Origin: Leptothrix sp. (in: b-proteobacteria)
GTDB taxonomy: Bacteria > Pseudomonadota > Gammaproteobacteria > Burkholderiales > Burkholderiaceae_C
Length of the DNA: 64,000 nt
Assembly (NCBI GenBank): GCA_013822685.1
Contig: PNKV01000013.1
Coordinates: forward strand, 13,095-77,094
Direction: 5' to 3'
Shown here: one piece after another, positions 16,466 to 52,580 of the stretch
How positions within the stretch are numbered: the stretch's first letter is position 1
Layout: the number at the start of each line of letters is the position of its first letter
The notes under the pieces: model-generated
What the model was told of the DNA's origin: nothing
Seen by the model: only the letters and a program-made list of their open reading frames with translations
The model's database searches: none
Position numbers and translations under genes: made by a program

Positions 16466-16481
16466 CGGCACCCGCATTGCT
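16466..16481 (+). promoter_or_regulatory. Putative sigma54 promoter for the antiporter
   Basis: CGGCACCCGCATTGCT, GG 16467-68 and GC 16479-80, about 40 nt before ATG 16520. Confidence 0.65.
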
Positions 16482-16519
16482 GATAGGGGTGTTCCACCGA
16501 TTCATGGGTTGTATTTCAC

Positions 16520-17794
16520 ATGCACATTGCCTGGTTCGTGCTGGTGGGCGCCGTTCTGATCGCCATGGCCTTTTCAGGCCACCTGGTCAAACGGCTGCCC
16601 CTGTCCCCAGCCATCCTTTACCTGGGCGTTGGCGCGCTGATCGGGCCACTGGGCGTCCGCATGCTGGATCTGTCGCCACAAGACAGCATGCCGTGGCTTG
16701 AACTCCTCACGGAAGTGGCCGTGCTGATCACGCTGTTCACAGTGGGCTTGCGCTTGCGCGTGCCTTTTTCAATGTCAGCGTGGGCGGTGCCCTTGCGCCT
16801 GGCCACGGCGGGCATGGTCATCACCACGGCCTGCATTGCCTTGATCGGGTGGCTGCTGCTGGATTTGCCCTGGCCTGCCTTGCTGCTGCTGGGGGCCATC
16901 CTGTCGCCCACCGACCCGGTGCTGGCCTCCGAGGTGCAGATCCGCCACCCCGCTGACCGCGACGACTTGCGCTTCTCGCTGACCGCCGAAGGGGGGCTCA
17001 ACGACGGCATGGCCTTCCCTGGCGTCATGTTGGCACTGGGATTGATGGGCTTGCATGAGATCGGCGACCTGGGCTGGCGCTGGCTGGCTGTCGATGTCGT
17101 GTGGGCGGTGGCGTCCAGCCTGGTGCTGGGCTGGTTGTGCGGCTACGCTGTGGGCCGATCCGTCCACGCCTTGCGGCAAAGCGGGCATGCCCTTGACGCG
17201 GAAGAGTTCCTGGCCTGTGGGGTGATCGCCCTGGTGTACGGCGCCGCGCTGGCCATCCACGCCTATGGCTTCCTGGCCGTGTTCGCGGCGGGTGCCGCCA
17301 TGTCTTATTGCGAGCGCGCCATGCGGGCCGACAAGATTCCCCTTCCCCACCAGGATGGGGCCCATTCGTCGCGCTTGATCCACTTCAGCGCGCAGAGCGA
17401 GCACCTGGCCGAGGTGGCCATCGTGCTGATCATCGGGGCGTCGCTGGCATCGGTCGATTGGCATTGGGCCACCGTGGCGTTCGCGCTCTTGGTGATGGTG
17501 GTGGCACGCCCGGTGTCGGTTCTGGCCACGGTGCCTTTGCACCTGATCGACCGGCCACAGCGGCGGTTGGTGGCCTGGTTTGGCATCCGCGGCGTGGGAT
17601 CGGTGTACTACCTGGCCTATGCCATCAACCACGGCATCGACGGCAGCGTTGCGCACACCTTGACCAGCGCAGTCATGATCACGATATTCGCGTCGATCCT
17701 GGCCCACGGCATCAGCGCCACGCCCTTGATGAGCCGCTATATGCGCCTCAAAAGACGGCAGCCCAAACCCCACCGTGGCCAGGAACGGGGTTGA
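16520..17794 (+). CDS. CPA1 (NhaP-like) cation:proton antiporter
   Basis: About 12 TM segments, ILSPTDPVLA, EGGLNDG, RP and WFGIRGVGS motifs. Confidence 0.88.
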   Translation: MHIAWFVLVGAVLIAMAFSGHLVKRLPLSPAILYLGVGALIGPLGVRMLDLSPQDSMPWLELLTEVAVLITLFTVGLRLRVPFSMSAWAVPLRLATAGMVITTACIALIGWLLLDLPWPALLLLGAILSPTDPVLASEVQIRHPADRDDLRFSLTAEGGLNDGMAFPGVMLALGLMGLHEIGDLGWRWLAVDVVWAVASSLVLGWLCGYAVGRSVHALRQSGHALDAEEFLACGVIALVYGAALAIHAYGFLAVFAAGAAMSYCERAMRADKIPLPHQDGAHSSRLIHFSAQSEHLAEVAIVLIIGASLASVDWHWATVAFALLVMVVARPVSVLATVPLHLIDRPQRRLVAWFGIRGVGSVYYLAYAINHGIDGSVAHTLTSAVMITIFASILAHGISATPLMSRYMRLKRRQPKPHRGQERG

Positions 17795-17803
17795 TGGGCC
17801 CCC

Positions 17804-20875: not shown

Positions 20876-21042
20876 GGGTCACTCAGCTGGGAAAACAGGC
20901 CGCTGGCGAGCGGCCAATACGGGCATTTCGCGAAATCCAGCATAAAGCGGATCGGCCTTTTTCATCATTAAAAATGGCTGTGGCTTTCCCGCTTCTTTGG
21001 TGTTGCACCACACGATGTGTGTTGGGCGCAACGGCCCCTGGC

Positions 21043-22485
21043 TCAAATTACCCTCAAGCGCGCGATCCGGTAGACGGATTCGTAACGGGCGGCGCTGCCA
21101 GACCAGCCCAGCGACTGCGCCATGCCGCTCTGAACCAGTCGCTCCCAGACCGGCGGATCGCGGAAGCGGCTGAAGGCGCGCTCAATGACCGCGCTGAGTG
21201 CCTCGGCCGTGGGTGGGGCGAAGACGAAACCTGTGGCGTCATCCACCACGGAATCGGCCAGGCCGCCCGTGGCGTGCACGATGGGCGGGGTGCCGTAGAC
21301 CAGGCTGTAGAGCTGGTTCAGGCCGCACGGCTCGAACCTTGACGGCATCAGAAAACAGTCGGCGCCCGCCTCGATCAGGTGGGCCAGGCTTTCGTCAAAA
21401 CCGATGCTCACGTGGACGCGCCCGGGGTGCTGCTGGGCCATGGACCGCAGGGCATCCTCCAGATCCGTGTCGCCCTTGCCCAACATCACCAGCTGGCCGC
21501 CTTCTTGGATGAGCTGGGGCACCAGCTGCAAGATCAGGTCGCTGCCTTTTTGCTGCGTCAAGCGGCTGACGACGCCGAACAGCATCGCCCCCGGGTCAGG
21601 GTTCAGCTGGCACCGGCTTTGCAGCGCTGCCTTGTTCGCCCGCTTGCCGGCTTTCACGGTCGTGGCGTCGTAGCGCTGCGGGATGAAGGTGTCCAAGGCC
21701 GGATTCCAGACCTCGGTGTCGATGCCGTTGAGGATGCCGTGCAGCCGATCGGCGTGGTCACGCAACACACCTTGCAGGCCAAAGCCCAGCGCCTCTTCCT
21801 GGATTTCCCGGGCATAGGTGGGGCTGACGGTGGTGATCGCATCGGCGAACTGCAAGCCGCCTTTCATGAAGGACAGCTGCGACCAGTACTCCAGGCCGCT
21901 GACCGACAGCCATTCCTCCGGCAGGTCCAGCTTGGGGGCCTCATCCAGCGGGAACAGCCCTTGGAAAGCCAGGTTGTGGATGGTCATGATGCTGGCGGCC
22001 CGACCCGGCAGGCGGCTCAGGTAGGCGGGCGCCAGGCCTGTCGGCCAGTCGTTGCAATGAACGATCTCGGCTTGCCAGCCAGGCACCGGGCTGAGTTGGC
22101 TGCCCAGGCGGGCGGCCACCTGGCTGAGCCAGGCAAAGCGAACGGCGTTGGTGGCGTGGTCCTGGCTGCTGTCGTTTTGGTAGGGGCCGCCAGCCAGCTC
22201 ATACAACTCGGGGCAGTCCAGCAGCCACAGTGTGAAGCCGGCGGCCTGATTCACGGCGGGTGCCGCCTGCACCAACCGCGCTGCGGGCCACACACCCTGG
22301 GCAGGGATGTCGGCGAGCACTTGGCCGTGGTCCACCAACTGGCGCAAAGCGGTGTAGGCAGGCATCAGCACCTTGACGTCCAAACCACGTTCGGCGAGTG
22401 CCCTGGGCAATGCCGCGGACACCTCGCCCAAGCCGCCAGTCTTGACCCAGGGGGCGCATTCGGGGGTGACGAACAAGATCTTCAT
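21043..22485 (-). CDS. glgA: Glycogen synthase
   Basis: MKILFVTPECAPWVKTGGLGEV, HCNDW, TIHNLAFQG, PSRFEPCGLNQ. Confidence 0.96.
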   Translation of the reverse strand: MKILFVTPECAPWVKTGGLGEVSAALPRALAERGLDVKVLMPAYTALRQLVDHGQVLADIPAQGVWPAARLVQAAPAVNQAAGFTLWLLDCPELYELAGGPYQNDSSQDHATNAVRFAWLSQVAARLGSQLSPVPGWQAEIVHCNDWPTGLAPAYLSRLPGRAASIMTIHNLAFQGLFPLDEAPKLDLPEEWLSVSGLEYWSQLSFMKGGLQFADAITTVSPTYAREIQEEALGFGLQGVLRDHADRLHGILNGIDTEVWNPALDTFIPQRYDATTVKAGKRANKAALQSRCQLNPDPGAMLFGVVSRLTQQKGSDLILQLVPQLIQEGGQLVMLGKGDTDLEDALRSMAQQHPGRVHVSIGFDESLAHLIEAGADCFLMPSRFEPCGLNQLYSLVYGTPPIVHATGGLADSVVDDATGFVFAPPTAEALSAVIERAFSRFRDPPVWERLVQSGMAQSLGWSGSAARYESVYRIARLRVI

Positions 22486-25400
22486 GACGGGGATGACTGG
22501 GACGGCGCCTGGTCGGCCGGGACCAGCACGGCGGCTGGCCAATGGGTGAACAAATCGGCCAACGGCAGGCCGCCAGACGGCCCCTCGGCGGCCACGATGA
22601 CGCGGCCTGTGAGGACATCCCGCCACCGGACCGGGGCGTCGACCGGCAAGCCCAGGCGCGCATCGCCCCAGCATTCGGCCTGCTGCTTCAAGGCATGGAT
22701 ATCGCCCTGGGCCAATGAATACAGCAAACGGCCCACCACCGTGAGGCATTGCTGGCCCTCCAGCGCCCTGGCATAGGCCACCACGTGGGGCGCGGCCGCA
22801 CCGGCCACGGGCAATGTCTGGTAAGTGCCTCGGCTGAACAACTCCGGGTGGCGCGCCCGCAACTGCAGCAGCCGCCAAGTGAACAGCATCTTGGGACCAC
22901 CGTCGCGCCAGTTCTCACGCAGGTCGTTCAGGGCACGCTCATCGGCCTGGCCGCCGGCGAACAGCGATTGCACCTGGGCATGCCGGGCTTTCAAGGCTTT
23001 GAAGTCCACGGGGCGGCGGTTGTCGGGGTCCACCAGGCTGAAGTTCCAGGTTTCACAGCCCTGGTAGATGTCTGGCACACCCGGCGCAGTCAATTTCAAG
23101 GTCACGAGGCCCAGGCTGTTCAGCGCGCCAAACGGGGTGATCCGGTCCACCAGGGATTGCAGGTCCTTCAAGAAGGGATTGGGTTCGAGCTGCCCCAGCA
23201 GCGCGTCGATGAAACGCGTCAGGGCCGCTTCGTACGCCTCGTTGGGATTGATCCAGCTGGTCTGCTCCTTGGCCTCGCGCACGGCTTTGAGCATGTAGGC
23301 CTGCACGCGCTGGCACAAGTCAGCCAGCGACTCGCGCGTGAGGGGTTCCAGGGGCCACATGCCCACCAGCGTCTGGTACAGCAGGTACTCATCGTTGCGT
23401 GTGGGAGCGAGCACGCCGTCGACGCGGGCCGTGCGCTTGTGGTTCATGGCCTGCCACCGTTCAATGGCGCCTTGCCACACCTCGGGCATTTCAGACAGCA
23501 CATCAATGCGCGTGCGCACGTCTTCGGACCGCTTGGTGTCGTGGGTCGAGGTGGCCAGCATGTTGTGCGGCGTGAAGCGGGCGCGGTACTGGTTGGCCGC
23601 GTGGAAGGCGCTGACCGACAGGCCAAAGTGGCGCGGGTCACCCCCCACATCGTTGAGCGAGGCCAGCCGGTGGTAGCGGTAAAACGCGGTGTCCTCCATG
23701 GACTTCGCCATGACCGGCGCGGTGAACTGCTGCCACCGGTAGACCAGGTTCAGCATGGCTTGCCGGCGATCCGGGTCTGGTTCGGTGGGCGCGCCCAGCA
23801 TGACGTCCCGCAGGTAGTCGATGACGCTGACCTCCGAAGCCCGGCTGCGGCGCTTGGCAGCGGCCGTGGCCCAGTCGATGTGCTGGCGATCGGCATCGCT
23901 GAAGCCGCGCTCGCCAATGTAGGTGCGGTAAACAGGAAAGGCCGCCGCGACGGCGCGCAAGGCCACGCGCAATCGGTTGCGAGTGAAGTCGCATGTGCGG
24001 CGGTCGCCCAGCGCGATGCGGTGCAGTGCCTCGGTCAGCACTTCCAGGTCACTGGACAAGGAGGTGGCGATGATGTCGAGTTTGGCCTGGTACAGAACCT
24101 CATCGAACACCAGCTTGTGGCCGATGAAATCGGTGTACAGGCGGTCGAAATCTTCTTCGTGCTCGCCATCCACGAACAGGCCGTTGACCAGGTTGGAGAA
24201 GCGGTAGCCCGTGCCACCATGCACGGGCCAATCAGTCGGCAAACGCTCATGGTCGGCCAGGATTTTTTCCACGGCCAGGAACAAGGCCCGGGGCGCCTCA
24301 TCCGGGTCATCGGCGGCCCTCATGGTGCTGAGGTAGCGCGATTGCAGCCGCGCGAAATAGCCTTGCGGGTCGCACAGGCCGTCCGGATGGTCAATGCGCA
24401 GGCCCGCCACCTTGCGTGCCTGTAACCACTGGAAGATGGTGTGGTGCGTGGCCTCGAACACGGCTTCGCGCTCCATGCGCACGGCGGCCAGCGTGTTGAT
24501 GTCGAAGAAGCGGCGGTAGTTGATGTCATCACCCGCCACCCGCCAGAAGGCCAGCCGGTAGGCCTGCTTCTGGATCAGCGCATCCAGGGCGTCGAAACTG
24601 GCGGCATCACCCGGCGTGCCGTTGATGACGGCCAGGCACGCCTCTGCCCAAGGCGCCAGCCAATTGAAGCGGCCAGCCAGCTGGGCCAATCGCTTCTTGT
24701 GGATGCTCTTGTCGCGGTGCCGCACCGCCCGTTGCGACGGCGTCAGATCGTCTCGTGGGGGCAGGCTGGCCAGCGCGTGCAAGAGCGACTGAACAATCTG
24801 GACTTCCTCGCTGGCCGACTCGTCAGTGGGCGCTGGGGCGGGTGCCCTGGCCATGATGTCGGCATAGTGGCGCGGGTCGATGGGGAAGCGGTGGTCGTGG
24901 TAATGGATCCAGAACTCGCCAGCCGTGGCATCGAACGAGAGCTTGAGCTCGCCCGCCTCCAGCACCTTGCCATAGTGATCACCCAACACCGGCAGCAGCA
25001 CCTGGCCTGAGAGCTCGGGCGCGGGCGGTTTCCACTCGATGTCGAAGGTCTCGGCATGCACGGAGGCCGGGCCGCTTTCCAGCACGTCCAGCCACCAGGC
25101 GTTGTCGGCCTGAAGCACGCCCATGTGGTTGGGCACGATGTCGATCAGCTGGTGCATGCCGTGGCGGGCCAGGCAGGCGCACAGTTGCTCAAAATCGGCT
25201 TCGTCGCCAATCTCGGGGTTGAGCGCGCTGTGGTCGATGATGTCGTAGCCATGCGTGCTGCCTGCCCTGGCCCGCAGGTAGGGCGAGGTGTAGAGGTGGC
25301 TGATGCCCAGGGCATCCAGGTAAGGCACGATGTCCGTGGCGTCGCTGAAGCGAAAGTCCTTGTGCAATTGCACCCGGTAAGTGGCGCGGGGGATCACCGC

Positions 25401-27650
25401 GGTCGACATCGGCGGCAGTTCGTCCTGCAGGCCGTGAGGCGCCACATCGCTGGGCCGCGCCTTCCGCAGCGCCTCGCTGACCGACTGCAGGCGGGGATCG
25501 CTGGCCAACGTCTCTAGGGAGACGGCCAGCTTGCGCCGCCAGTTGGGGAACTGCGATTCGCTGGTGCCCGGGATGTTGACCTGGATGAGCTGCTGGGTGA
25601 CGTCTTCCAGCTGCACGCCCACCAGTTGAGCGGGCGTGCAGCCCAGGAAACTGTAGACCGCGTCGGTGAATGCCGGCGAGGTGTCGTCCGTCATGGAGGG
25701 ATGCACGCTGCCATCCTCGGGGATGAGGCCTTCTTGTTCCAGGGCCAACAGCAATTGGGCCCGGTCCTGCGCGCGGCCCACCACCTGCTGGGCCCTCACC
25801 TCGTCATTGGGAAACAGGCCCAGCTCGGTCCGCAGGTCCACATCCTTGCCGTTCCAGAAGCCACGCAGTGTGGGCAAGTCATGGGTGCTGACCACGGCCA
25901 GGGCATGGGGCGACCACTCCTCGGGCCGCTTGAAACGACCATCGTGCGTGCGCTCGAAGAACAGGGGACAGTACGACAGCAGGTACTGCTCGCGCATGGC
26001 CTCGCGCATGCGGGGTGGCACGGTGCCCAAGTCTTCGCCAATCACCAGGCATTGGTGGCGATGGCTTTCCAGCGCCAGGATGCCCATCATCTCGTCGACG
26101 GGATAGTTCATGTAGGCGCCTGACTTGGCGCCGTCTTCCGGATGGATCCAGAACAGCCGCATCAAGGCCATCACGTGGTCGATGCGCAAGGCACCCGCAC
26201 AGCGCATGTTGGCGCGCAGGGTGTCGATGAAAGGCTGAAAATCCTGCTCGCGCAAACGCGATGGGATCATGGGCGGCAAGCCCCAATCCTGGCCGGCCAG
26301 GTTGTACTCTTCAGGCGGTGCACCCACGTGCAGCTCCATGGCATACAGGCTGCGCCGGGACCAGGTTTCCGCTCCACCCTCGTTCACGCCCACGGCCAGG
26401 TCCCGGTACAGGCCGATGGCCATGCCCAGCGACTCGGCCCGCGCCTGGGCAGACTGCAGCTGCACCTCGGCCTGCCATTGCAGGTACTCGAAGAACTCGA
26501 CGCGCACCTCGTGTTCGCGCTCGAACTCGGCCACCTCTGGCGAGCTGGGATCGCGGTAGGCTGGCGGCCACAAAGACCAGCCCCACACCGACGAGTCTTG
26601 CGCGTGAAAGTGCGCTTGCAAGGTTTCGAACAAGGCTTGGCGCCGCAGCTCACCACCGCGCTCTTTCTGGTAAGCCCTGAAGGCACGGCCGCGGCGCGTG
26701 TCGCCCGACAAATGGCGCAAATGGAAGTGCTTGAACAGCATCTCCAGCACCTCGAGCTTGGCCGTGGCCACGGCCTGGTAGTTGACGATCTCGGGCTCGC
26801 GGAAAGCCTGCAAGCGCTGCTGAAACGCCACGCTGTTGACCAGGTCGCTGGCGAATCGGCACTCGGCATAGTCAGGCACGGCCGTCACGTCGATGTACAG
26901 CACGTTCATCGCGTTACGGCTGGACGGGCTGTAGGGGCTGGCCCGCTCTGGCTCGTGGGGGAACAAGGCGTGCAAGGGGTTCAACCCCACAAAGGATGCG
27001 CCCTGCCCGGCCACGATCTCCAGCAGCCGTTTCAGGTCGGAGAAATCGCCAATCCCCCAGTTGTCGTTCGACCGCAGTGCGTAAAGCTGGATGCTCGGCC
27101 CCCACAGGCGCTCGCCCTGCTTCAGCACCTTGGGCTCGTGGCACCGGGGTGGGCACACGATGACCCGCGTGCGTGCCAATTCGCCCGACGCTTGCGCGGC
27201 CGACCGCAGGGTGAGTTGGTGGTAGCCCAAGGGCAGCGTTCGCGGCAGGTCAATCTGCAGATGGATCGCCTCGGGATGGTCATCGGCGGAGGCGAACATC
27301 AAGCCGCCGAAGCGTTCGGCGTTCTCGCATTCCAGCGACCAGGTGTAGCGCTTGTCCGCGTTGCCAAATTGGGGCTGACTTGACAGCATGACCGCGATGC
27401 TGACGGGCTGGCCCTGGCGCAGCACCAGGGCCGAGGGCAGGATGCGCTGTTCCTCGCGGGCCTTCAGCTTGAGCAAGGTATTGTGCGCCGCTTCGTCGCT
27501 GTCGACCTCCAGGCCCATGGCCTTCAACAGTTTGCGCAGGGACGCTTCGGGCACCTGGCGCGCCTGCCCCCAGAAATCGTCGTAGCAGGTGGCCAACCCG
27601 ACATGTGCGCACAGCGACTCAAGGCCTGTGGAGATTGACGCGTTGTCCAT
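22482..27650 (-). CDS. malQ-treY: Fusion of 4-alpha-glucanotransferase (MalQ) and malto-oligosyltrehalose synthase (TreY), about 1722 aa
   Basis: N-half LYALRS...WGIGDF, LRIDHVMAL, GEDLG, STHDLPTL; C-half PRATYRVQ, STHGYD, DIVPNHMG, GLRIDHPDGL, STHDTKRSED, GVPDIYQG; no stop between the halves. Confidence 0.93.
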   Translation of the reverse strand: MDNASISTGLESLCAHVGLATCYDDFWGQARQVPEASLRKLLKAMGLEVDSDEAAHNTLLKLKAREEQRILPSALVLRQGQPVSIAVMLSSQPQFGNADKRYTWSLECENAERFGGLMFASADDHPEAIHLQIDLPRTLPLGYHQLTLRSAAQASGELARTRVIVCPPRCHEPKVLKQGERLWGPSIQLYALRSNDNWGIGDFSDLKRLLEIVAGQGASFVGLNPLHALFPHEPERASPYSPSSRNAMNVLYIDVTAVPDYAECRFASDLVNSVAFQQRLQAFREPEIVNYQAVATAKLEVLEMLFKHFHLRHLSGDTRRGRAFRAYQKERGGELRRQALFETLQAHFHAQDSSVWGWSLWPPAYRDPSSPEVAEFEREHEVRVEFFEYLQWQAEVQLQSAQARAESLGMAIGLYRDLAVGVNEGGAETWSRRSLYAMELHVGAPPEEYNLAGQDWGLPPMIPSRLREQDFQPFIDTLRANMRCAGALRIDHVMALMRLFWIHPEDGAKSGAYMNYPVDEMMGILALESHRHQCLVIGEDLGTVPPRMREAMREQYLLSYCPLFFERTHDGRFKRPEEWSPHALAVVSTHDLPTLRGFWNGKDVDLRTELGLFPNDEVRAQQVVGRAQDRAQLLLALEQEGLIPEDGSVHPSMTDDTSPAFTDAVYSFLGCTPAQLVGVQLEDVTQQLIQVNIPGTSESQFPNWRRKLAVSLETLASDPRLQSVSEALRKARPSDVAPHGLQDELPPMSTAVIPRATYRVQLHKDFRFSDATDIVPYLDALGISHLYTSPYLRARAGSTHGYDIIDHSALNPEIGDEADFEQLCACLARHGMHQLIDIVPNHMGVLQADNAWWLDVLESGPASVHAETFDIEWKPPAPELSGQVLLPVLGDHYGKVLEAGELKLSFDATAGEFWIHYHDHRFPIDPRHYADIMARAPAPAPTDESASEEVQIVQSLLHALASLPPRDDLTPSQRAVRHRDKSIHKKRLAQLAGRFNWLAPWAEACLAVINGTPGDAASFDALDALIQKQAYRLAFWRVAGDDINYRRFFDINTLAAVRMEREAVFEATHHTIFQWLQARKVAGLRIDHPDGLCDPQGYFARLQSRYLSTMRAADDPDEAPRALFLAVEKILADHERLPTDWPVHGGTGYRFSNLVNGLFVDGEHEEDFDRLYTDFIGHKLVFDEVLYQAKLDIIATSLSSDLEVLTEALHRIALGDRRTCDFTRNRLRVALRAVAAAFPVYRTYIGERGFSDADRQHIDWATAAAKRRSRASEVSVIDYLRDVMLGAPTEPDPDRRQAMLNLVYRWQQFTAPVMAKSMEDTAFYRYHRLASLNDVGGDPRHFGLSVSAFHAANQYRARFTPHNMLATSTHDTKRSEDVRTRIDVLSEMPEVWQGAIERWQAMNHKRTARVDGVLAPTRNDEYLLYQTLVGMWPLEPLTRESLADLCQRVQAYMLKAVREAKEQTSWINPNEAYEAALTRFIDALLGQLEPNPFLKDLQSLVDRITPFGALNSLGLVTLKLTAPGVPDIYQGCETWNFSLVDPDNRRPVDFKALKARHAQVQSLFAGGQADERALNDLRENWRDGGPKMLFTWRLLQLRARHPELFSRGTYQTLPVAGAAAPHVVAYARALEGQQCLTVVGRLLYSLAQGDIHALKQQAECWGDARLGLPVDAPVRWRDVLTGRVIVAAEGPSGGLPLADLFTHWPAAVLVPADQAPSQSSPS

Positions 27651-29524
27651 CAGTTTGCGGTCCGATCGATCCACCAAACACCCGCCCATGGTCCAAGCCC
27701 ACGGGCAGACACTTCGCCCTCCACCACCGCACCAGACGCCGGCAAGGCGGGCGCGGCACCACGCCAGCTCAGTGCCTGCTCGGACAGGTTGACCACCATG
27801 CGCAGCGCAGACCCATCCCCCAGCGCCCACCACACTGAAAGCGCCCGCTCACCGATGCGCTCGGCATGGTGCTCGCCTGTCCGCAGCGTGCTCAGGTGAG
27901 GCGCGACATGGAGGCGGCGCCAAGCCAGCAGCTCGCGGTAAAAGCTTCGCCAGCGCTGGCCTGGCGGCTGGCCCGCAGCGGCCCAGTCCAGCTTGCTGCG
28001 TTGAAAGGTGCCCTCATCGCAGGGATCGGGGATCAAGGCCTGCGTTTGCGCGTCCGAGAACTGGGGGAACTGCGCGAACTCCCTGCGACGGCCTTCGGTC
28101 ACGGCCTGGCGCAGTTCGCCACTCCAATCGCTGAAATACAGAAACGGCGTGGCCGCGCCAAACTCTTCGCCCATGAACAACAAGGGGGGCGCGGGCATGA
28201 GCAAGTGCATGGCAGTGATGAGGCGCAAGGCCGGCTCACTGACCAACTGGCCGAGGCGATCGCCCATGGCCCGGTTGCCCACCTGGTCGTGGTTCTGCAA
28301 AAAATTGACCATGTTCAGCAGGGGTTGGGGCGAGGTCGTTCGCCGCCTGGGCTGGGCGTGCTCCCAGTTGTGGGGGCCGCCCTGCCAGACCAGGCCGTCT
28401 GTCAGGCTGGTGGCCAGTTGGCCCAGGGTGTCGTCCGTGTATTCAGCGTAATAGCCATCCTTCTCGCCGGTCAACAGCACGTGCACGGGGTGGTGAAAAT
28501 CACCGTTCCACTGCCCCTCGAACAGGCCAGGTGTGCCGGGCTTGTCCAGGCGCGAGGCATCGTTGCTGTCGTTCTCAAGAACCAGGTGAATGTGGCGCTG
28601 CGGAAAGGCCTGGCGCACCCTCACCGACATGGCAGCCATGATGTCCAGCCGAGAGTCGTCCAGCATGGCGTGCACGGCATCAAAACGCAGCCCGTCGAAG
28701 CGGTACTCTTCCAGCCAGTACAGGGCGTTGTCGATGAAGAAGTCGCGCACCGTGGCGCTGCCCGGCCCATCGAAGTTGATGGCCGCGCCCCAAGCCGTGT
28801 GGTGCCGCTCAGAGAAAAAACCGGGCGCGTAACGCGACAGGTAGTTGCCATCCGGACCAAAGTGGTTGTAGACCACGTCCAGCATCACCATCAAGCCCAG
28901 GCCGTGGGCTGCGTCGATGAAGCGCTTGAGGTCGTCGGGGCTGCCATGGCTGCATTGCGGCGCGAACAACAGCACGCCGTCGTAGCCCCAGCCAAAGCGC
29001 CCGGGGTAACTGGCCTGCGGCATCAACTGCACGGTGGTGATGCCCAGTTGGGCCAGTTCAGGCAAGCGCGCCTGGGCCGCCGCATAAGTGCCTTCGGGCG
29101 TGAAGGCGCCCACATGCATCTCGTACATCACGGCCTCGTTCCAGGGCACGCCTTGCCAGCCCTGCGAGTGGGCCCACTCAAAGCTCAGCGGATCAACGAC
29201 CTCGCTGAAGTCATGCACGCCATCGGGGTTGTTGCGCGAGGCTGGGTCTGGCACATCCAGCTCACCATCAATGCGCCAACGGTAACGGCTGCCTGCCGTG
29301 GCCTCGGGCACATACAGCTCGTACCACTCGCGGGCGGGATCTTCATCGCCTTGGCAGGCATTGCCATGGGCCTCGATGAAGCGCGCCTCGTCGCCTTCGG
29401 CCACCAGGATTTTCAGGACCAGTTCGACCCGCTTGGCACCGGGTGCCCACAGGCGAAAGTCCACGCCGCCCCCTTCGCGCACCTGGGCGCCAAAGCGCAT
29501 GGCATGGGCGTGGCGGGTGCTCAT
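27650..29524 (-). CDS. treZ: Malto-oligosyltrehalose trehalohydrolase
   Basis: FRLWAP, YEMHVGAFT, WGYDGV, DVVYNHFGPDGNYL, GLRFDAVH, NHDQVGNRA.G.RL. Confidence 0.94.
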   Translation of the reverse strand: MSTRHAHAMRFGAQVREGGGVDFRLWAPGAKRVELVLKILVAEGDEARFIEAHGNACQGDEDPAREWYELYVPEATAGSRYRWRIDGELDVPDPASRNNPDGVHDFSEVVDPLSFEWAHSQGWQGVPWNEAVMYEMHVGAFTPEGTYAAAQARLPELAQLGITTVQLMPQASYPGRFGWGYDGVLLFAPQCSHGSPDDLKRFIDAAHGLGLMVMLDVVYNHFGPDGNYLSRYAPGFFSERHHTAWGAAINFDGPGSATVRDFFIDNALYWLEEYRFDGLRFDAVHAMLDDSRLDIMAAMSVRVRQAFPQRHIHLVLENDSNDASRLDKPGTPGLFEGQWNGDFHHPVHVLLTGEKDGYYAEYTDDTLGQLATSLTDGLVWQGGPHNWEHAQPRRRTTSPQPLLNMVNFLQNHDQVGNRAMGDRLGQLVSEPALRLITAMHLLMPAPPLLFMGEEFGAATPFLYFSDWSGELRQAVTEGRRREFAQFPQFSDAQTQALIPDPCDEGTFQRSKLDWAAAGQPPGQRWRSFYRELLAWRRLHVAPHLSTLRTGEHHAERIGERALSVWWALGDGSALRMVVNLSEQALSWRGAAPALPASGAVVEGEVSARGLGPWAGVWWIDRTAN

Positions 29525-31677
29525 CCCGGCTCCTGCGTGAACACGACCATGGACCGGGCTGCCAAGGGATAGGTCTCGCCCGCACGCCAGGCCAGCTGGT
29601 CCGGTTGCCCGCTGTCGTGGCTGGTGTCAAAGCGCGCGGTCCAGTCCTTTTGCTCGTAGTGCGCGGGCAGGATGAAGGGCACATCTTCGTGGTGCCCGTT
29701 GATCAGCATCAACAGCGTTTCGGCATTGGCGCGCCGGCCGTGTTCATCGTATTCACCGGTGTGGCGGCCGCAGAACATGGACGCCACGGTGCGCGCCTCG
29801 GGCTGTTGCCAGGCTTCGGTGGTCATCTCCCGGCCCTCGGCATCGAACCAGGTGACGTCGCGGTGGCCGTCTTCGTCAATGTGCCCGTCCAGGAAATCGG
29901 TGCGGCGCAAGCCGGGCTGGGCCTTGCGGAACTCGATCAGGCGCTGCACGTAGGACAGCAGGTCTTGTTGCTCTGGCGTGAGGTTCCAGTCAAACCAGCT
30001 GATCTCGCTGTCTTGGCAATAACCGTTGTTGTTACCCCCTTGCGAGCGCCCGATTTCATCGCCCCCCAGCAGCAAGGGCGTGCCTTGCGAGAGGAACAAG
30101 GTGGTCAGCAGGTTGCGTTGCTGTTGCAGGCGCAGGGCGCGAACCGCTTCATCGTCGGTGTCACCCTCAGCACCGCAATTCCAGCTGCGGTTGTGGCTTT
30201 CGCCATCGCGGTTGTCCTCGCCATTGGCCTCGTTGTGCTTGTCGTTGTAGCTGACCAGGTCGCGCAGGGTGAAGCCATCGTGCACGGTGATCAGGTTGAC
30301 GCTGTCGGTGGGGCAGCGGCCCCGGTGCTCGTACAGGTCACTGGAGCCACACATGCGGCGCGAGAGTTCGGCCACGGTGTGCTCCTGGCCACGCCAGAAA
30401 TCGCGCACGGCATCGCGGTACAGTCCGTTCCACTCGACCCAGCCCGGCGGGAATCCGCCCACCTGGTAGCCGTTGTCACCCAGATCCCAGGGCTCGGCGA
30501 TCAGCTTGACGCGCGACAGCACCGGGTCTTGCGCCAGGGCCGCGAAGAAGCTGCTGTGGTGGTCAAAAGCCGATGCACTGCGCCCCAGCGTGGTCGCCAG
30601 GTCAAACCGGAAGCCATCCACGTGCATCTGCGTCACCCAATAGCGCAGGCTGTCCATGATCAGGCGCAACACCACCGGGTGATGGCTGTTGAGGGTGTTG
30701 CCGGTGCCGGTGTAGTCCACGTAATAGCGCGGATCCTCGGGGCTGAGGCGGTAGTAGGTCGCGTTGTCGATGCCCTTGAAGCACAGCGTGGGGCCCAGGT
30801 GATTGCCTTCGGCCGTGTGGTTGTAGACCACGTCCAGGATCACCTCCAGGCCCGCCGCGTGCAGGTCCTTGACCATCTGCTTGAACTCGTTGATGGAGCC
30901 GGTGGCGCTGTAGCGCATCTCGGGCGCGAAAAACCCGATGGTGTTGTAGCCCCAATAGTTGCGCAGGCCGGACTCGACCAGGCGCTGGTCGTCGATGAAG
31001 GCGTGCACTGGCAGCAACTCGATCGACGTCACGCCCAGCTTCTTCAAGTGGTCAATCACCGCGGGTGATGACAGGCCGGCGTAGGTGCCCCGATGGGCCT
31101 CGGGCACATCGGGGTGGCGCTGGCTCAGGCCCTTGACGTGAACCTCATAGAAGATGGTGTCACGCCAAGGCACTTGCGGCGATCGGTCATCACCCCAGTC
31201 GAACGATTCGTCCACCACTTGCGACTTGGGCATGCCTGGCGCGCTGTCATCGTTGTTTTGCGCCAGGTCTTCATCGACCGCATCCAGTTCGTAGTCGTAG
31301 TGGGCCGGCGACCAATTCACCGGCCCGACGATCGCCTTCGCATAAGGATCGATCAGCAACTTGCTGGGGTTGAAGCGCAGCCCCTCTTCAGGCCGGTGCG
31401 GCCCATGCACGCGGTAACCATACAGGGTGCCGGCAGGGCAACCGCGCACATAGCCGTGCCACACGTGGTGCAGCTTGCGCGTCAGCTCAAAGCGCTGGAT
31501 CTCGTGGCCATCAGGCGCGTAGAAACACAGCTCGATCCTGTCGGCCGTGCTGGCGTAGATCGCGAAGTTGGTGCCACTGCCATCGAAGGTGGCCCCCAGC
31601 GGATAGGCCTGGCCGGCCTCCAGGTGCCACGCATGCGCCGCCTTGGCCGCCTTCTTGTCTCCCAAGGATTTTTTCAT
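29521..31677 (-). CDS. glgX: Glycogen debranching enzyme
   Basis: NYWGYNT, DVVYNHTAEG, VDGFRFDLA, HDGFTL.DLVSYN.KHN. Confidence 0.96.
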   Translation of the reverse strand: MKKSLGDKKAAKAAHAWHLEAGQAYPLGATFDGSGTNFAIYASTADRIELCFYAPDGHEIQRFELTRKLHHVWHGYVRGCPAGTLYGYRVHGPHRPEEGLRFNPSKLLIDPYAKAIVGPVNWSPAHYDYELDAVDEDLAQNNDDSAPGMPKSQVVDESFDWGDDRSPQVPWRDTIFYEVHVKGLSQRHPDVPEAHRGTYAGLSSPAVIDHLKKLGVTSIELLPVHAFIDDQRLVESGLRNYWGYNTIGFFAPEMRYSATGSINEFKQMVKDLHAAGLEVILDVVYNHTAEGNHLGPTLCFKGIDNATYYRLSPEDPRYYVDYTGTGNTLNSHHPVVLRLIMDSLRYWVTQMHVDGFRFDLATTLGRSASAFDHHSSFFAALAQDPVLSRVKLIAEPWDLGDNGYQVGGFPPGWVEWNGLYRDAVRDFWRGQEHTVAELSRRMCGSSDLYEHRGRCPTDSVNLITVHDGFTLRDLVSYNDKHNEANGEDNRDGESHNRSWNCGAEGDTDDEAVRALRLQQQRNLLTTLFLSQGTPLLLGGDEIGRSQGGNNNGYCQDSEISWFDWNLTPEQQDLLSYVQRLIEFRKAQPGLRRTDFLDGHIDEDGHRDVTWFDAEGREMTTEAWQQPEARTVASMFCGRHTGEYDEHGRRANAETLLMLINGHHEDVPFILPAHYEQKDWTARFDTSHDSGQPDQLAWRAGETYPLAARSMVVFTQEPG

Positions 31678-31680
31678 TGC

Positions 31681-32934
31681 TCAGGCGTGCCGGCTGGTGA
31701 GTTCACGCTCCACGGGCACCGTGCCCGAAAAGTACCCTCGGGGCACCACCACCACCCCGCCCTCACTGACGTGAAAGCGCTGGCGGTCTTTTTCCAGGTC
31801 ATACCCGATCAACTCGCCGGGAGGAATGTGGTTGTTCTGGTCGATGATCGCGCGCCTGATGCGGGCGCCGGCGCTGATCACCGAGCGCTCCATCACGATG
31901 CAATGCTCTAGCTGCGCATCGGGTTCGACGATCACCGAACGGCGCAGCATGGCGTGGTCAAGCCGGGCCCCGTTGATCACACTGCCTGATCCCACCACCG
32001 ACCGGTTGATCATGCCGCTCTCGATCTGGGCCGATTCAGCGGAATCGTTGCTTGAATAAATCGGCCAATGGGGGTTGCTCATGCGAAAGCGTGGCTTGGC
32101 ACCCAGCGTGTCGAAGTGCGCTTCGAAGTACGCGTCGATGGTGCCCACGTCTCGCCAATAGGCGGTCTCTTCGTAAGGCTGCGTGCCAGGGATCTCGTTG
32201 GTGGCAAAGTCGTAGGCCACCAGCTTGTGCGTCTTCATCATCCGCGGCAGAATGTGCTTGCCAAAATCGCTTTCGCCCAGCTCCTTGGCGCGCTTCAACT
32301 CTTTCAGCAACACATCGGCTTTGAAGATGTAGTTGCCCATTGAGGCCAATGCATGCCCGGGGCGGCCCGGCATGGGCTTGGCGGTCGGCGGCTTTTCAAT
32401 GAAGTCCACCACGCGGTGCTGGTCATCGGCTTCGACAATGCCAAACGACGGGCTTTGCGACAAGGGCACGGGCAAGGTCGCCACGCTCACGTCGGCCTGG
32501 GTCTTGAGGTGGAACTCCACCATCTGGCGCACATCCATGCGGTAGATGTGGTCGGCCCCAAACACCGCCACCAGGTCGGGCTGGGCACTTTCAATCAGGT
32601 GGATGTTTTGAAAGATGGCGTCGGCCGTGCCCTGAAACCATTCCTTGCCCGAATGCATTTGGGGCGGCACCACAGTGATGAAATGATTGGGGATGAACCG
32701 GCTCATGGTCCACGACTGGCGCACGTGCTCGATCAGCGACTGCGATTTGTACTGCACCAGCAGGTACACCGAATAGATCTCGGAGTTGACCAGGTTGCTG
32801 AGCACAAAATCAACGATTCGATGCTTGCCGTTGAACGGCACGGAGGGCTTGCACCGATCAGCGGTGAGCGAGTGCAGACGTGTGCCCTCCCCGCCTGCCA
32901 TGACGAAAGCCAGCACGTTTTTGCCGGCAATCAT
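31681..32934 (-). CDS. glgC: Glucose-1-phosphate adenylyltransferase
   Basis: [44 protein letters not shown]. Confidence 0.96.
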
Positions 32935-33006
32935 GGCAGCCTCCGCCGAGTCAGGTAAGGGTTTGCAGTCATGGCCAAAAGTCCTTGTAGATCGATGACC
33001 TACAAG

Positions 33007-33023
33007 GGCAATTGGCGTGCCCA
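33007..33023 (-). promoter_or_regulatory. Putative sigma54 promoter for the glgC-glgX-treZ-malQ/treY-glgA operon
   Basis: Minus strand TGGGCACGCCAATTGCC, GG 33021-20 and GC 33009-08. Confidence 0.7.
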
Positions 33024-33100
33024 TTTATTCCACGGCGTAAAACTGGAAACCCCGGGGCTCTCGCGTGTAATCCTGTCGAGAGCGCTGTAAAAGCTGCGCG

Positions 33101-36979: not shown

Positions 36980-36986
36980 GCAAATA

Positions 36987-37033: not shown

Positions 37034-37045
37034 ATTCGGCGACCC

Positions 37046-37258: not shown

Positions 37259-37423
37259 GGTCTTGCTCCTTCTGGGTTGATCTCAAGAACGCTTTTGGCG
37301 TGCTCGACTTTCCTTGTCGACCTTTTCACGCGTACCGTCAAGACAAGGCCTCACAGAGGGTTGGGCGATATCATTCCGGGCCGCTTGATTTGTCTTTCTT
37401 CAACCCAATTTCTGGACACCGCC

Positions 37424-37780: not shown

Positions 37781-37797
37781 AAATTGTGCAAGGCGGG

Positions 37798-37824
37798 TGT
37801 CGAACCCGTGTCGCCTGGTTCGTC
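37798..37824 (+). promoter_or_regulatory. Putative ECF42-type promoter
   Basis: TGTCGA-N17-CGTC upstream of the second YciI gene; resembles the ECF42 motif as I recall it. Confidence 0.55.
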
Positions 37825-37881
37825 GTGTGAATGAAGGCCTGAAGTGGCCTGAGGGATACACGGCAAATCAGGAGCATTCAG

Positions 37882-38238: not shown

Positions 38239-38252
38239 GCAAGGAGCACAAC

Positions 38253-42681: not shown

Positions 42682-42685
42682 GGCC

Positions 42686-48793: not shown

Positions 48794-48832
48794 GGGGGCG
48801 TCCTCTGCTGTGTTGTCGTGGCAGGCACGATA

Positions 48833-50394: not shown

Positions 50395-50476
50395 GTGAGG
50401 GCTCCTTGTTTGAACAGTGCCTTCAGCTTATGAGCAGGGGCCTGCAATGTGAATCCGCGCGGCAGACAAGTCATCA

Positions 50477-50491
50477 TTGCAAATTGCGCAA
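50477..50491. promoter_or_regulatory. Putative LysR-type binding site
   Basis: TTGC-N7-GCAA (T-N11-A) in the divergent GST/LysR gap. Confidence 0.55.
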
Positions 50492-50500
50492 CAATGGGCC

Positions 50501-51442
50501 ATGGACCAGCTTGATTCAATGCGCGTATTCGTGGCCGTGGCCGATGCCCAAAGCTTCGCAGGCGCCGCCCGTTCGCTCAAATGCTCGCCAGCCGCCGTGA
50601 CCCGAGCGGTGGCCGCGTTGGAGCAGCACCTGGGCGCACGTTTGCTGCACAGAACCACCCGCAGCCTGCGCCTGAGCGAAGCCGGTGAGCGCTACGTGGC
50701 CGATTGCCGCCGCATCCTCGCCGAGCTGGACGAAGCCGACGCCGTGGCCAGCGGCGCCCACGTCGATCCGCAGGGCGAGCTCAAGATTACCGCGCCGGTG
50801 CTGTTTGGCCGCATCCACATGGCCCCCTTGCTGCTTGATTTTCTGAAAGAGCACCCGCGTCTGAGCGCCCGCGCCATGTTCGTGGACCGCCTGGTGCATC
50901 TGATTGACGAAGGCGTGGACGTGGCCCTGCGCATCGCGCATCTGCCAGATTCATCCCTCACCGCCCTGAAGGTCGGCACCGTGCGCCGCGTGATCGTGGC
51001 TTCGCCCCACTACCTTGCGCGCCAAGGCGAGCCCCTGTCGCCCGACGACCTGGCGCAGCACGATGCGATCGGCATCTCCACCTCAGGCGGCTCATCCACG
51101 CCTTGGCAGTTCGCACGACCGGGCGCGGCCCACCGCGATCTCCACCCGGCGCCCGCCCCCCGCGTGCAGTTGACGGTCAACGCCAGCGAGGTGGCCATCC
51201 TGGCGGCCAAGTCGGGTCATGGCCTGATACGGACCCTGTCTTACCAGGTGGCTGAAGATGTGGCCCGTGGACACCTGCGCATCGTGCTCGCCGATTTTGA
51301 ACCAACGCCCGTGCCTGTGCACCTGGTGCATCCCGAAGGCAGGCACGCCGCCGCCAAGGTCCGAGCCTTCCTGGACTTTGCGGCGGCAAGGCTACGCGCC
51401 CACCCTGCTCTCAACGATGTTGATCCACCACGGGCACAGTGA
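50501..51442 (+). CDS. LysR family regulator
   Basis: SFAGAAR.L..SPAAVTR.V..LE..LG.RLL.RTTR HTH. Confidence 0.95.
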   Translation: MDQLDSMRVFVAVADAQSFAGAARSLKCSPAAVTRAVAALEQHLGARLLHRTTRSLRLSEAGERYVADCRRILAELDEADAVASGAHVDPQGELKITAPVLFGRIHMAPLLLDFLKEHPRLSARAMFVDRLVHLIDEGVDVALRIAHLPDSSLTALKVGTVRRVIVASPHYLARQGEPLSPDDLAQHDAIGISTSGGSSTPWQFARPGAAHRDLHPAPAPRVQLTVNASEVAILAAKSGHGLIRTLSYQVAEDVARGHLRIVLADFEPTPVPVHLVHPEGRHAAAKVRAFLDFAAARLRAHPALNDVDPPRAQ

Positions 51443-51447
51443 TTGCA
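51431..51447 (+). promoter_or_regulatory. Putative sigma54 promoter for the 83-aa ORF
   Basis: CGGGCACAGTGATTGCA, GG 51433-34 and GC 51445-46, overlapping the LysR gene end. Confidence 0.65.
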
Positions 51448-51498
51448 GCTGAAGCTTCAGCTGGCCATTCCGGCCATGCCCTCAGCAGGAGACTTGCC

Positions 51499-51750
51499 AT
51501 GGCAACGACAGTGCCCGACTCAGCAACGCCCGAGATCCAGACCATCTATCGCCAGCTTGAAAAGGGCCTTGGCCACGAACTGGTCAACGACGACAACGTC
51601 TTCGCCCTGATTGACCTGGCCAAGCAACATGGCCACCAATTGCTGGAACGTGAGCTGCGTGAATGGCAAGCCCCCTGCTCCACACCCGACGACCGCCCGC
51701 GCACCATCGCGCCCACTGGCGGCTTCAACAAGGAACACGTCAGGCACTGA
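51499..51750 (+). CDS. Hypothetical protein, 83 aa
   Basis: RBS AGGAGA, GC-skewed codon usage, soluble helical-looking sequence; family not recognised. Confidence 0.75.
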   Translation: MATTVPDSATPEIQTIYRQLEKGLGHELVNDDNVFALIDLAKQHGHQLLERELREWQAPCSTPDDRPRTIAPTGGFNKEHVRH

Positions 51751-52534
51751 ACCCGGTGATGCCGGCATAGGCCACCTTGACCTCTTCAACCCCGTGCGTG
51801 CGCTCCAGTCGCCGCACGATGAAGTGGCCGCGGGCCATGCGCTGGAAGTGCTCCATGAACAAGGTGTTGATCACTGCCCCGCCCACCGCGCCCACAATGG
51901 GCACGGCCTGGGCCATCACCTTTTCAGACACGTTCACCGAAAAGCGCGAAGCAACCTGCGCGATGAACTGCACCAAGGCGGTTCCCTTGCGCTGAACCAG
52001 CCCCTTTTGCGCCACTTGCCGTGCGGCCTCCGACACGGCCTGGGCCATGGCCGCACGGGCCGCAAAGTAGCCAGCCTCGGACGCGTCGTCCTGGCTCGAA
52101 CGGCCACCCAGCGCCAGCACCTGCACGCATTCCAGCTGTGATTCTGGCGAGCTCAGATCCTCGCCCTCGCTGCGCGCCACATCGGCAATCGAGCGCAGCA
52201 TGATCGTCGTCGACACCGGCAATTCGATCAGCAAGGTGGACAAGCCAAAAGCGCCGCCCAAAGCGCCCGACGCCCCCACCGCCAGCTTGTGCCATCCGTT
52301 GGACGAATGGCTGGCGGGCAAGCTGTTCATGGTGCTCAGGGCCACGTCCATGGCCTTGGCAATGGCCTTGCTGGCCGCCTCGTTGATCACTGAAGCCCAT
52401 TTCTTGGGCAGCATGCCGTAACCCTTTTCCAGGGGCGTGCCCAGCACATCGCTGATCCTGGCCACCAGGCCGGGGTTTTCAAGCAAGGCCTTCGCTTGGC
52501 GCAGATCGCCCAAGTCGGCTGAAGAAAGTGGCAT
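51740..52534 (-). CDS. EcsC family protein
   Basis: LIELPVSTTIMLRSIA..A..EG, VPIVGAVGGA..N..F...FQ..A.GHF..RRLER; RBS AAGGA. Confidence 0.88.
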   Translation of the reverse strand: MPLSSADLGDLRQAKALLENPGLVARISDVLGTPLEKGYGMLPKKWASVINEAASKAIAKAMDVALSTMNSLPASHSSNGWHKLAVGASGALGGAFGLSTLLIELPVSTTIMLRSIADVARSEGEDLSSPESQLECVQVLALGGRSSQDDASEAGYFAARAAMAQAVSEAARQVAQKGLVQRKGTALVQFIAQVASRFSVNVSEKVMAQAVPIVGAVGGAVINTLFMEHFQRMARGHFIVRRLERTHGVEEVKVAYAGITGFSA

Positions 52535-52563
52535 GGTCAGATCCTTTGGTTGCATGCTTGGCT

Positions 52564-52580
52564 AGCAAATGATGCGCCCG
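52564..52580 (-). promoter_or_regulatory. Putative sigma54 promoter for ecsC
   Basis: Minus strand CGGGCGCATCATTTGCT, GG 52578-77 and GC 52566-65. Confidence 0.6.

Follow-up and report, generated by a model that had tools for sequence, protein, structure and literature searches.

Three paradigms of the general stress response are known, namely RpoS, SigB, and EcfG. The RpoS regulon (E. coli, Gamma- and Betaproteobacteria) comprises katE, otsA and the trehalose genes, the glycogen genes, the CsbD-family gene yjbJ, ribosome hibernation, and osmotic and oxidative protection. Here we describe a stretch of 64,000 nucleotides (nt) from Leptothrix sp. (assembly GCA_013822685.1, contig PNKV01000013.1, positions 13,095 to 77,094 of the forward strand; the whole stretch is called the window below), in which four -24/-12 elements precede an antiporter gene, a storage operon that begins with glgC, a gene for a protein of 83 amino acids (aa), and ecsC. 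It had been predicted from the sequence of the window that sigma-54 and an enhancer-binding protein may run a stress and storage programme (hereafter the original prediction), and this claim is supported by the motif statistics, the conservation, the gene content, and the lack of rpoS. The physiological cargo matches that of the RpoS regulon, whereas the mechanism is entirely different: RpoS is a member of the sigma-70 family that uses -10/-35 promoters and no ATPase activator, and rpoS is absent here.

Second sigma-54 genes have been described in related bacteria. The megaplasmid of Ralstonia solanacearum GMI1000 carries rpoN2 (RSp1671) and the GSFTGA activators RSp1667 and RSp1668, with RSp1668 and rpoN2 as the predicted targets (Lundgren et al. 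2015, PMC4676750), and RpoN1 and RpoN2 cannot replace each other in this bacterium (PMC4676750). The present system is like the Ralstonia rpoN2 locus in being a second sigma-54 gene in Burkholderiales with linked GSFTGA activators and predicted RpoN promoters, a likeness that rests on these shared features. It differs in that no regulon or function was found in Ralstonia, whereas about 50-70 stress and storage promoters are predicted here, in a genus without RpoS. In Burkholderia pseudomallei, an rpoN2 mutant grew normally on nitrogen sources but no longer expressed katE late in stationary phase, and katE has an RpoN box upstream (Diep et al. 2015, PMC4745423). A motif also precedes katE here, 41 nt before the start, and the likeness again rests on shared features. 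In B. pseudomallei, one target is documented and RpoS is also present, whereas here the same logic appears to cover a whole stress and storage programme. In Rhodobacter (Cereibacter) sphaeroides, RpoN1 serves nif and RpoN2 serves the flagella, as cited in PMC12316311. The resemblance lies in the presence of several sigma-54 paralogues in one cell, each with its own gene set; the R. sphaeroides modules serve nitrogen fixation and motility rather than stress survival, and they are also unlike the present system in their gene content and in the loop variant of the activator.

The alphaproteobacterial sigma-EcfG/NepR/PhyR system (PMC3892343) is similar in being a lineage-specific replacement of RpoS with overlapping cargo (CsbD, Ku, catalase, and small hydrophilic proteins) and control by a phosphorelay. 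EcfG is an extracytoplasmic function (ECF) sigma factor that recognizes GGAAC-N16/17-CGTT and is governed by partner switching, whereas the element here, GG-N10-GC, is 14 nt long and switching would fall to an AAA+ activator. No description of a general stress response driven by sigma-54 was found in the literature searched. The mechanism is a variant of known sigma-54 paralogue modules, and a general stress and storage role in Burkholderiales lacking RpoS is undescribed in the same literature.

Four -24/-12 elements and their genomic background

The original prediction had placed four motifs, on the right strand and with the right spacing, shortly upstream of the four named genes, and all four were read there (Table 1). 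The gene starts needed some correction. The ATG at 33024 given for glgC in the list of open reading frames (ORFs) is spurious, the true start being the ATG at 32934, and the start of ecsC was moved to the ATG at 52534, which is most likely the genuine one because it has an AAAGGA ribosome-binding site and is conserved in the alignment with the closest relative, G009 (the genus compared throughout is Aquabacterium, with 24 sampled genomes; relatives are labelled G002, G008, G009, and so on). The four sites lie 30-73 nt from the corrected start codons, and their GG and GC are exactly 10 bases apart in every case. Relative to the extended consensus TGGCAC-N5-TTGCW, GGCAC and TTGC are kept in the four sites, except for GGCGC at ecsC; T at -26 is present in none of them, and the bases at -11 are T, C, A, and T, respectively. 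Site 1 lies in a divergent gap of 106 nt between eutB and the antiporter gene, site 2 in a gap of 166 nt behind a gene for a major facilitator superfamily (MFS) transporter, and site 4 in a divergent gap of 122 nt between ecsC and a probable gene for a small secreted protein, while site 3 overlaps the stop codon of a LysR gene. Transcription from site 2 is predicted to start near 32996. Directly after the -12 element of site 3, a perfect 18-bp palindrome resembling GCAGCTGAAGCTTCAGCTG spans the predicted start site; it could act as an operator or as a 5' hairpin.

The assembly analysed comprises 4.21 Mb in 29 contigs, with 63% G+C. A loose form of the pattern matched 13 times in the window, compared to 5.8 +/- 2.3 times in dinucleotide shuffles, none of 100 of which reached 13; the genome average is 5.7 per 64 kb, and the Poisson P for the 13 matches of the window is 0.006. 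The stricter pattern GGCAC-N5-TTGC, which was picked without training, gave 93 matches genome-wide, and 52 of these were intergenic, though only 13.5% of the genome lies outside called genes. Thirty-eight matches were promoter-oriented and at most 150 nt from a start codon, as against six that were anti-oriented. By comparison, 360 composition-matched patterns with permuted half-sites had means of 7.7 intergenic and 1.5 promoter-oriented matches, and the runner-up among them, with nine promoter-oriented matches, was the same motif shifted by one base. The length of the spacer mattered as well: N5 gave the 52 intergenic matches, whereas the other spacers within N2-N9 gave 7-17. The distance from the -12 element to the ATG had a median of 41 nt (interquartile range 34-51). 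The motif frequency is far above background, and the excess is specific in spacing and orientation.

A position weight matrix (PWM) of 22 nt was trained iteratively on the promoter-positioned matches of this genome. Scores of at least 16 bits were reached by 80 matches, 65 of them intergenic, and in 2-fold cross-validation the held-out half showed an enrichment over coding sequence of 11-fold at 14.5-16 bits and of more than 40-fold above 16 bits. The glgC site is the top PWM match of the whole genome (23.9 bits with the full PWM and 22.8 bits with a PWM from other contigs), the site of the 83-aa gene scored 18.8 bits (18.3 held-out), and the ecsC site scored 15.2 bits (14.9 held-out). By sequence alone, two sites rank as strong (glgC and the 83-aa gene) and two as marginal (the antiporter gene and ecsC).

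Each of the four sites was also found before orthologues in other Aquabacterium species. The glgC site is kept in G009 (96% protein identity) as GGCACGCTGATTGC, with a changed spacer, and in G008 (74% identity; GGTACGGCAATTGC, GGTACGGCAATTGCC), in which the remaining upstream region and the flanks are unrelated. In G020 and G021, glgC directly follows glgB and has no promoter of its own. Before the antiporter gene, the core is identical at 14 of 14 positions in G009 and the sequence downstream of the core has diverged, and homologues with about 50% identity in G012 and G022 have upstream matches of 14.0 and 15.7 bits. The ecsC site of G009, GGCGCACCAATTGC (17.2 bits), has kept its distance to the start while its flanks have diverged strongly. 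Homologues of the 83-aa gene (44-63% identity) were found in five other genomes, all with RpoN2, and GG-N10-GC precedes four of the five in unrelated contexts (13.3 bits in G012, 12.8 in G022, 12.5 in G008, and 9.4 in G002); the fifth homologue lies within an operon. It is likely that the four sites are sigma-54-type promoters belonging to one stress regulon.

The antiporter homologues of G012 and G022 have a peculiarity of their own. The -12 element ends about 13 nt before the ATG in both, and their transcripts would be leaderless or nearly so.

The RpoN2 module and the stress genes

Genome-wide, the genes behind the motifs are the cargo of a general stress response. The stress and storage content of the proposed regulon held good, while its size had to be amended upward from four promoters to an estimated 50-70 or so stress-class promoters, with background allowed for; about a dozen more are estimated to be classical sigma-54 promoters. 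Among the genes behind the best promoter-positioned matches elsewhere, those confirmed by Pfam or NCBIfam encode a GT20 OtsA, GlgB, a long HPII-type catalase (KatE), two CsbD proteins, Ku, a protein resembling the S30AE/HPF hibernation factor, and Usp, DUF3606, DUF4142, Host_attach, and PLD (cardiolipin-synthase-like) proteins. Motifs also precede genes for an endonuclease/exonuclease/phosphatase protein and for several small proteins that are glutamine/glycine-rich or acidic. Several stress-class promoters occur as back-to-back divergent pairs 0-50 nt apart (C16:101255-101298, C1:25774-25817, C23:59748-59794, C8:19377-19466, and C21:24844-24919). The two members of such a pair would need to share access for the activator or for polymerase.

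Besides two rpoN genes, the genome encodes eight true Sigma54_activat proteins. RpoN2 (C1:31733-33193; 552 bits on NCBIfam NF009118) is 43% identical to RpoN1 (C26) and 99% identical to the RpoN2 of Aquabacterium sp. CECT 9606, which marks the organism as a member of Aquabacterium. The neighbourhood of RpoN1 looks like the usual lptB type, its neighbours being judged by size and position only. No rpoS gene turned up in this genome, nor in the 24 sampled from the genus: the best match here to rpoS_proteo (TIGR02394) is RpoD, with 279 bits against a cut-off of 378.7, and the cut-off was reached in 0 of the 24 genomes and in 8 of 16 other families of the order.

The rpoN2 gene lies in an island of about 25 kb that also encodes three hybrid or PAS histidine kinases, a glutamine-rich protein of 70 aa, CsbD, a flavoprotein resembling general stress protein 26, a REC-only regulator, catalase-related proteins, a YihY protein, and an NtrC-family response regulator. 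The island holds 14 motif matches of at least 12.5 bits within 22 kb, and one sigma-54-type promoter, GGCACGGGTGTTGC, stands 39 nt before rpoN2 itself. The NtrC-family response regulator (C1:21548-22954), a bacterial enhancer-binding protein claimed by no NCBIfam equivalog, has the loop ...HEKGSFTGAD..., whereas the other activators of the genome read GAFTGA, and it keeps a C-terminal tail, read by eye, that resembles a helix-turn-helix. This response regulator is a strong candidate for the enhancer-binding protein, and the evidence points to the paralogue RpoN2 as the sigma factor. RpoN2 and the GSFTGA activator are probably the drivers of the regulon.

The stress-class sites differ in form from the classical consensus. 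In the whole class, T at -26 is found in 23% of the sites, and the base at -11 is C in 45% and T in 31%. When 53 regular-expression matches were examined, 13 had T at -26 and 40 had another base there, and C at -11 was present in 2 of the former and 23 of the latter (Fisher p = 0.011). The matches with T at -26 mostly have A or T at -11 and include promoters adjoining GAFTGA activators (prpR/prpB, a GlrR-like gene, and ntrC); T at -26 is shared by the norR/hmp promoter, which falls outside the regular-expression set owing to a deviant -12 element. We read the combination of a base other than T at -26 with C or T at -11 as a promoter dialect and not as a failed consensus. The idea of promoter dialects comes from later work on R. 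sphaeroides. On the protein side, 68 of 75 RpoN2 loci have ARRTVTKYR as their RpoN box, RpoN1 has the canonical ARRTVAKYR, and the two proteins also differ in the helix-turn-helix region. These differences in the RpoN box and the helix-turn-helix may cause the differences in promoter dialect.

The association of the motif with rpoN2 extends to other genomes. We collected 76 rpoN2 loci from other genomes, many of them truncated, in genera that include Aquabacterium, Rubrivivax, Piscinibacter, Rhizobacter, Ideonella, Albitalea, Ramlibacter, Caenimonas, and Propionivibrio. The motif density in these loci is 0.198 per kb, compared to 0.038 per kb genome-wide here, and a GGCA[CT]..TTGC site lies 24-120 nt before rpoN2 in nearly all of the 67 loci scanned. 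An orthologue of the activator (58-99% identity) lies at most 10 kb from rpoN2 in 49 of the 76 loci, and all 45 scorable linked orthologues have GSFTGA. Twelve of the 24 genomes of the genus carry RpoN2. These 12, and no others, have the activator orthologue, which in each case shares a contig with rpoN2; RpoN1 is missing from a single genome, which is incomplete. Inside the genus, only RpoN2-positive genomes have homologues of the 83-aa gene, glgC, ecsC, and the antiporter gene, and the same goes for close katE orthologues. The motif was found at seven of the eight katE copies in RpoN2-positive genomes, and the sole catalase of an RpoN2-negative genome is without it. The ratio of pattern to reversed-pattern counts had a median of 2.5 in RpoN2-positive genomes and 1.85 in RpoN2-negative genomes (Mann-Whitney p = 0.001); the per-genome counts are dominated by matches in coding sequences, and this ratio is only a modest signal of RpoN2 dependence.

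Two other genomes offer further observations on the module. In the nearly complete G022, 12 exact pattern matches lie in about 90 kb (C1:780000-872000) around rpoN2, the activator, and the 83-aa homologue, and strong motifs (18.2-21.6 bits) accompany all three katE paralogues of this genome. In G030, which belongs to another family, a second rpoN copy (45% identity), a GSFTGA-type activator orthologue (62%), and two glgC homologues lie within 50 kb (C5:130000-180000). The link between the module and glycogen genes may thus reach beyond the genus.

Proposed mechanism and alternative explanations

The motif statistics, the conservation, the gene content, the linkage, and the co-occurrence are computational results, whereas sigma-54 dependence in vivo, the specificity of RpoN2, which protein is the activator, and the signals that induce the response are inferences. 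In the scheme that we favour, the sensor kinases of the C1 island would phosphorylate the NtrC-family response regulator with the GSFTGA loop, and this activator would remodel closed complexes of RNA polymerase with RpoN2. The position of rpoN2 behind a sigma-54-type promoter would provide positive feedback. RpoN2, with its clade-specific box ARRTVTKYR, would read the dialect that usually has no T at -26 and has C or T at -11, and the housekeeping RpoN1 would serve the classical TGGCAC...TTGCA promoters adjoining the GAFTGA activators (prpR, ntrC, and norR). The programme switched on would include the synthesis of glycogen and trehalose, a ribosome hibernation factor, HPII catalase, CsbD, Ku, Usp, the antiporter, EcsC, and many small uncharacterised proteins, and the system would fill the place that RpoS, absent from the genus, takes in other proteobacteria. 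Taken as a whole, with four working sigma-54-type promoters, a single regulon for stress, dormancy, and storage, RpoN2 and its activator, and the place of RpoS, this scheme seems to us rather likely to be correct. A bolder version is that RpoN2, the GSFTGA activator, and the dialect form an orthogonal sigma-54 system and a fourth paradigm of the general stress response, which replaces RpoS in Burkholderiales lacking it and directly commands glycogen and trehalose storage, and in which the Aquabacterium activator may need no fixed enhancer site. We propose this version only tentatively, with doubt slightly outweighing belief.

If the scheme is true, a sigma-54 paralogue and a dedicated ATPase activator would constitute a mechanistically different general stress response. 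Sigma-54 promoters are silent without an activator, and the response would therefore be tightly off or on, at a cost of ATP. The RpoN2 found in Ralstonia, in Burkholderia, and in many Burkholderiales of the environment, which has long lacked an explanation, would gain a function, and the entry into dormancy of freshwater and soil betaproteobacteria that lack RpoS would be explained. The scheme also makes a concrete prediction, a regulon with about 50-70 promoters that takes in many small uncharacterised proteins.

Other explanations of the sites were considered. It is unlikely, in our judgement, that the stress and storage promoters are served by the housekeeping RpoN1, acting with the GSFTGA activator or with several activators, and that RpoN2 is redundant or has a narrower role. 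Such service would agree with the fact that both sigma-54 proteins keep the core DNA-binding determinants and with the finding that plasmid-borne rpoN2 of R. solanacearum and of B. pseudomallei complements an E. coli rpoN mutant, RpoN2 therefore reading canonical promoters (PMC4676750, PMC4745423); about a fifth of the stress-class sites, moreover, have T at -26, and the promoter of rpoN2 itself ends in TTGC[A/G], nearer the classical form. The distribution of the genes argues otherwise, however: in the genus, gains and losses of the regulon genes coincide with those of rpoN2 and of the GSFTGA activator, whereas RpoN1 is nearly always present. The peak of motif density around rpoN2 in many genera, the covariation of -26 and -11, and the clade-specific substitution in the RpoN box also speak against RpoN1. 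Somewhat less likely still is that the sites of the antiporter gene and ecsC arose by chance or have decayed, those of glgC and the 83-aa gene alone being functional. The full-PWM scores of the two (14.9 and 15.2 bits), the held-out score of the antiporter site, the GGCGC in place of GGCAC at ecsC, and the expectation that about 1 in 10 promoter-positioned matches at 14.5-16 bits comes from background would all suit a chance origin, as would the close kinship of the main comparator, G009. On the other side, both cores are kept in G009 amid diverged flanking or downstream sequence, the antiporter homologues of the more distant G012 and G022 have matches of 14-15.7 bits, and within the genus both genes occur only in RpoN2-positive genomes.

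It is highly improbable that the 14-nt element is the site of some other factor, be it a dimeric regulator on GGCA-N7-TGCC or another type of sigma factor. GGCA...TGCC is indeed a 4+4 inverted repeat, which C at -11 completes in 57% of the sites of the non-T class, the T at -26 is mostly missing, and no enhancer was found upstream of the promoters. The strict GG-N10-GC spacing, the direction, and the fixed distance to the start codons are nevertheless predicted by a -24/-12 promoter and not by a symmetric operator; the excess of promoter-oriented over anti-oriented matches (38 vs 6) reflects this direction, and the near-invariant TT at -15/-14 has no symmetric partner. In addition, dozens of genomes show enrichment of the element in the surroundings of a sigma-54 gene and of an activator of sigma-54, and ECF-type spacings do not suit an element of 14 nt. 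A palindromic transcription-factor site was rejected on the orientation bias and the asymmetry.

Several points weigh against the RpoN2 scheme, in addition to the possibility of service by RpoN1. The rpoN2 mutant of R. solanacearum had no phenotype in the conditions tested and no role in metabolism or virulence (PMC4676750). The antiporter site, at 14.9 bits with the full PWM and less than 11 bits held-out, is the weakest of the four by sequence. The PWM was trained on this genome, which makes scores of 13-16 bits partly circular, and the gene calls came from our own self-trained caller, which is crude (it missed glgA and treZ) and makes the split between intergenic and coding DNA approximate. 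The co-occurrence counts ignore phylogeny, and the RpoN2-positive genomes may be one clade. The public runs holding this DNA are metagenome or host-associated libraries with 8-kb contigs of a strain about 93% identical, and they give no transcript ends. Finally, a shared upstream activating sequence was not detectable by k-mer and palindromic-dyad tests in the 150-300 nt upstream of 60-63 promoter-like sites, and in the median case only 79 nt of free intergenic space lies upstream of the motif. Enrichment of 6- to 8-mers gave a best p of 5e-5 over 1864 tests, for the k-mer GATACC, which came from back-to-back divergent promoters, and palindromic 4-mer dyads with gaps of 2-14 gave nothing. The paired site GTAA-N3-TTAC has no exact copy genome-wide, and copies with one mismatch precede 4 of 63 promoters; TTTAC half-sites were marginal relative to composition-matched intergenic DNA (p of about 0.02-0.05, uncorrected). 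The activator either has a degenerate site, binds inside the upstream genes, or acts largely from solution.

Features of the window and neighbouring genes

The positions of the elements and genes in the window are listed in Table 1.

Table 1. Elements and genes of the window (positions counted from the first letter of the window)
Feature	Position	Strand	Description
Facing -24/-12-like motifs	4312-4371		gap between a 1187-aa kinase-like gene (GGCACCGAAATTGC, 13.7 bits) and the urease cluster
Site 1 (-24/-12 motif)	16467-16480	+	GGCACCCGCATTGC; 39 nt before antiporter ATG 16520
Antiporter gene	16520-17794	+	Na_H_Exchanger family, Pfam PF00999 127.9 bits
Storage operon, five genes	21043-32934	-	behind site 2; stops and starts overlap or abut (read from sequence)
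glgA	21043-22485	-	NCBIfam GlgA 556 bits
Perfect classical consensus	21608-21623	+	TGGCACCGGCTTTGCA; inside glgA, antisense
malQ-treY fusion	22482-27650	-	NCBIfam MalQ-TreY (PRK14507) 2322 bits
treZ	27650-29524	-	NCBIfam TreZ 649 bits
glgX	29521-31677	-	NCBIfam GlgX 1036 bits
glgC	31681-32934	-	NCBIfam GlgC 563 bits
Upstream ORF of 13 codons	32931-32972	-	in glgC leader; TGA stop overlaps glgC ATG (ATGA)
Site 2 (-24/-12 motif)	33008-33021	-	GGCACGCCAATTGC, context aatgGGCACGCCAATTGCcctt; 73 nt before glgC ATG 32934; exact match
LysR gene	50477-51442		stop codon overlapped by site 3
Site 3 (-24/-12 motif)	51433-51446	+	GGCACAGTGATTGC; 52 nt before ATG 51499 of 83-aa gene
18-bp palindrome	51446-51463	+	directly after -12 element of site 3
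83-aa gene	51499-51750	+	small-protein family kept within genus (…EIYRxLxxGxGHxxVxDxNVxALI…LREWxAPC…)
ecsC	51740-52534	-	Pfam EcsC 110.8 bits; corrected start ATG 52534
Site 4 (-24/-12 motif)	52565-52578	-	GGCGCATCATTTGC; 30 nt before ecsC ATG 52534
Secreted-protein or lipoprotein gene (probable)	52657-53022	+	121 aa; divergent from ecsC
norR	52997-54532	-	NCBIfam NorR 695 bits (cut-off 476); GAFTGA loop; outside stress regulon
norR-hmp control region	54533-54680		NorR-type boxes and hmp promoter
hmp	54679-55854	+	divergent from norR; 550 bits

The antiporter has its best NCBIfam matches among K+/H+ antiporter models, all below the cut-off, and the 83-aa protein has no family match in Pfam or NCBIfam. 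In the leader of glgC, the upstream ORF has a counterpart in G009, where a similar ORF reads MTANTKLTGRRLP, and this arrangement suggests translational coupling or control by a leader peptide. The perfect classical consensus inside glgA is far from the nearest gene on the same strand; it could be a chance occurrence or an antisense promoter.

The gene for NorR lies close to ecsC and beside its divergent neighbour, the probable secreted protein or lipoprotein of 121 aa, whose gene is convergent with norR and overlaps its 3' end by about 25 nt. The original prediction also held that none of the sites stands beside a cognate activator. To the letter this fails, as NorR is about 420 nt from the ecsC promoter, yet NorR pairs with hmp, so that the statement holds in substance. 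The norR-hmp control region contains the NorR-type GT-N7-AC boxes GTCATTAAGAC and GTCATTTTAAC and the promoter TTGGCACGGAATTTGG; the hmp promoter has the form TTGGCAC-N5-TTTGG, with GG and not GC in its -12 element, 43 nt before the ATG of hmp. The 122-nt gap before ecsC has no NorR boxes, and NorR was rejected as the activator of ecsC on this ground and on the ground that a gene on the opposite strand lies between them. At the other end of the window, the gap that separates the kinase-like gene from the urease cluster holds two -24/-12-like motifs in facing orientation; they are probably nitrogen-type sigma-54 promoters outside the stress class.

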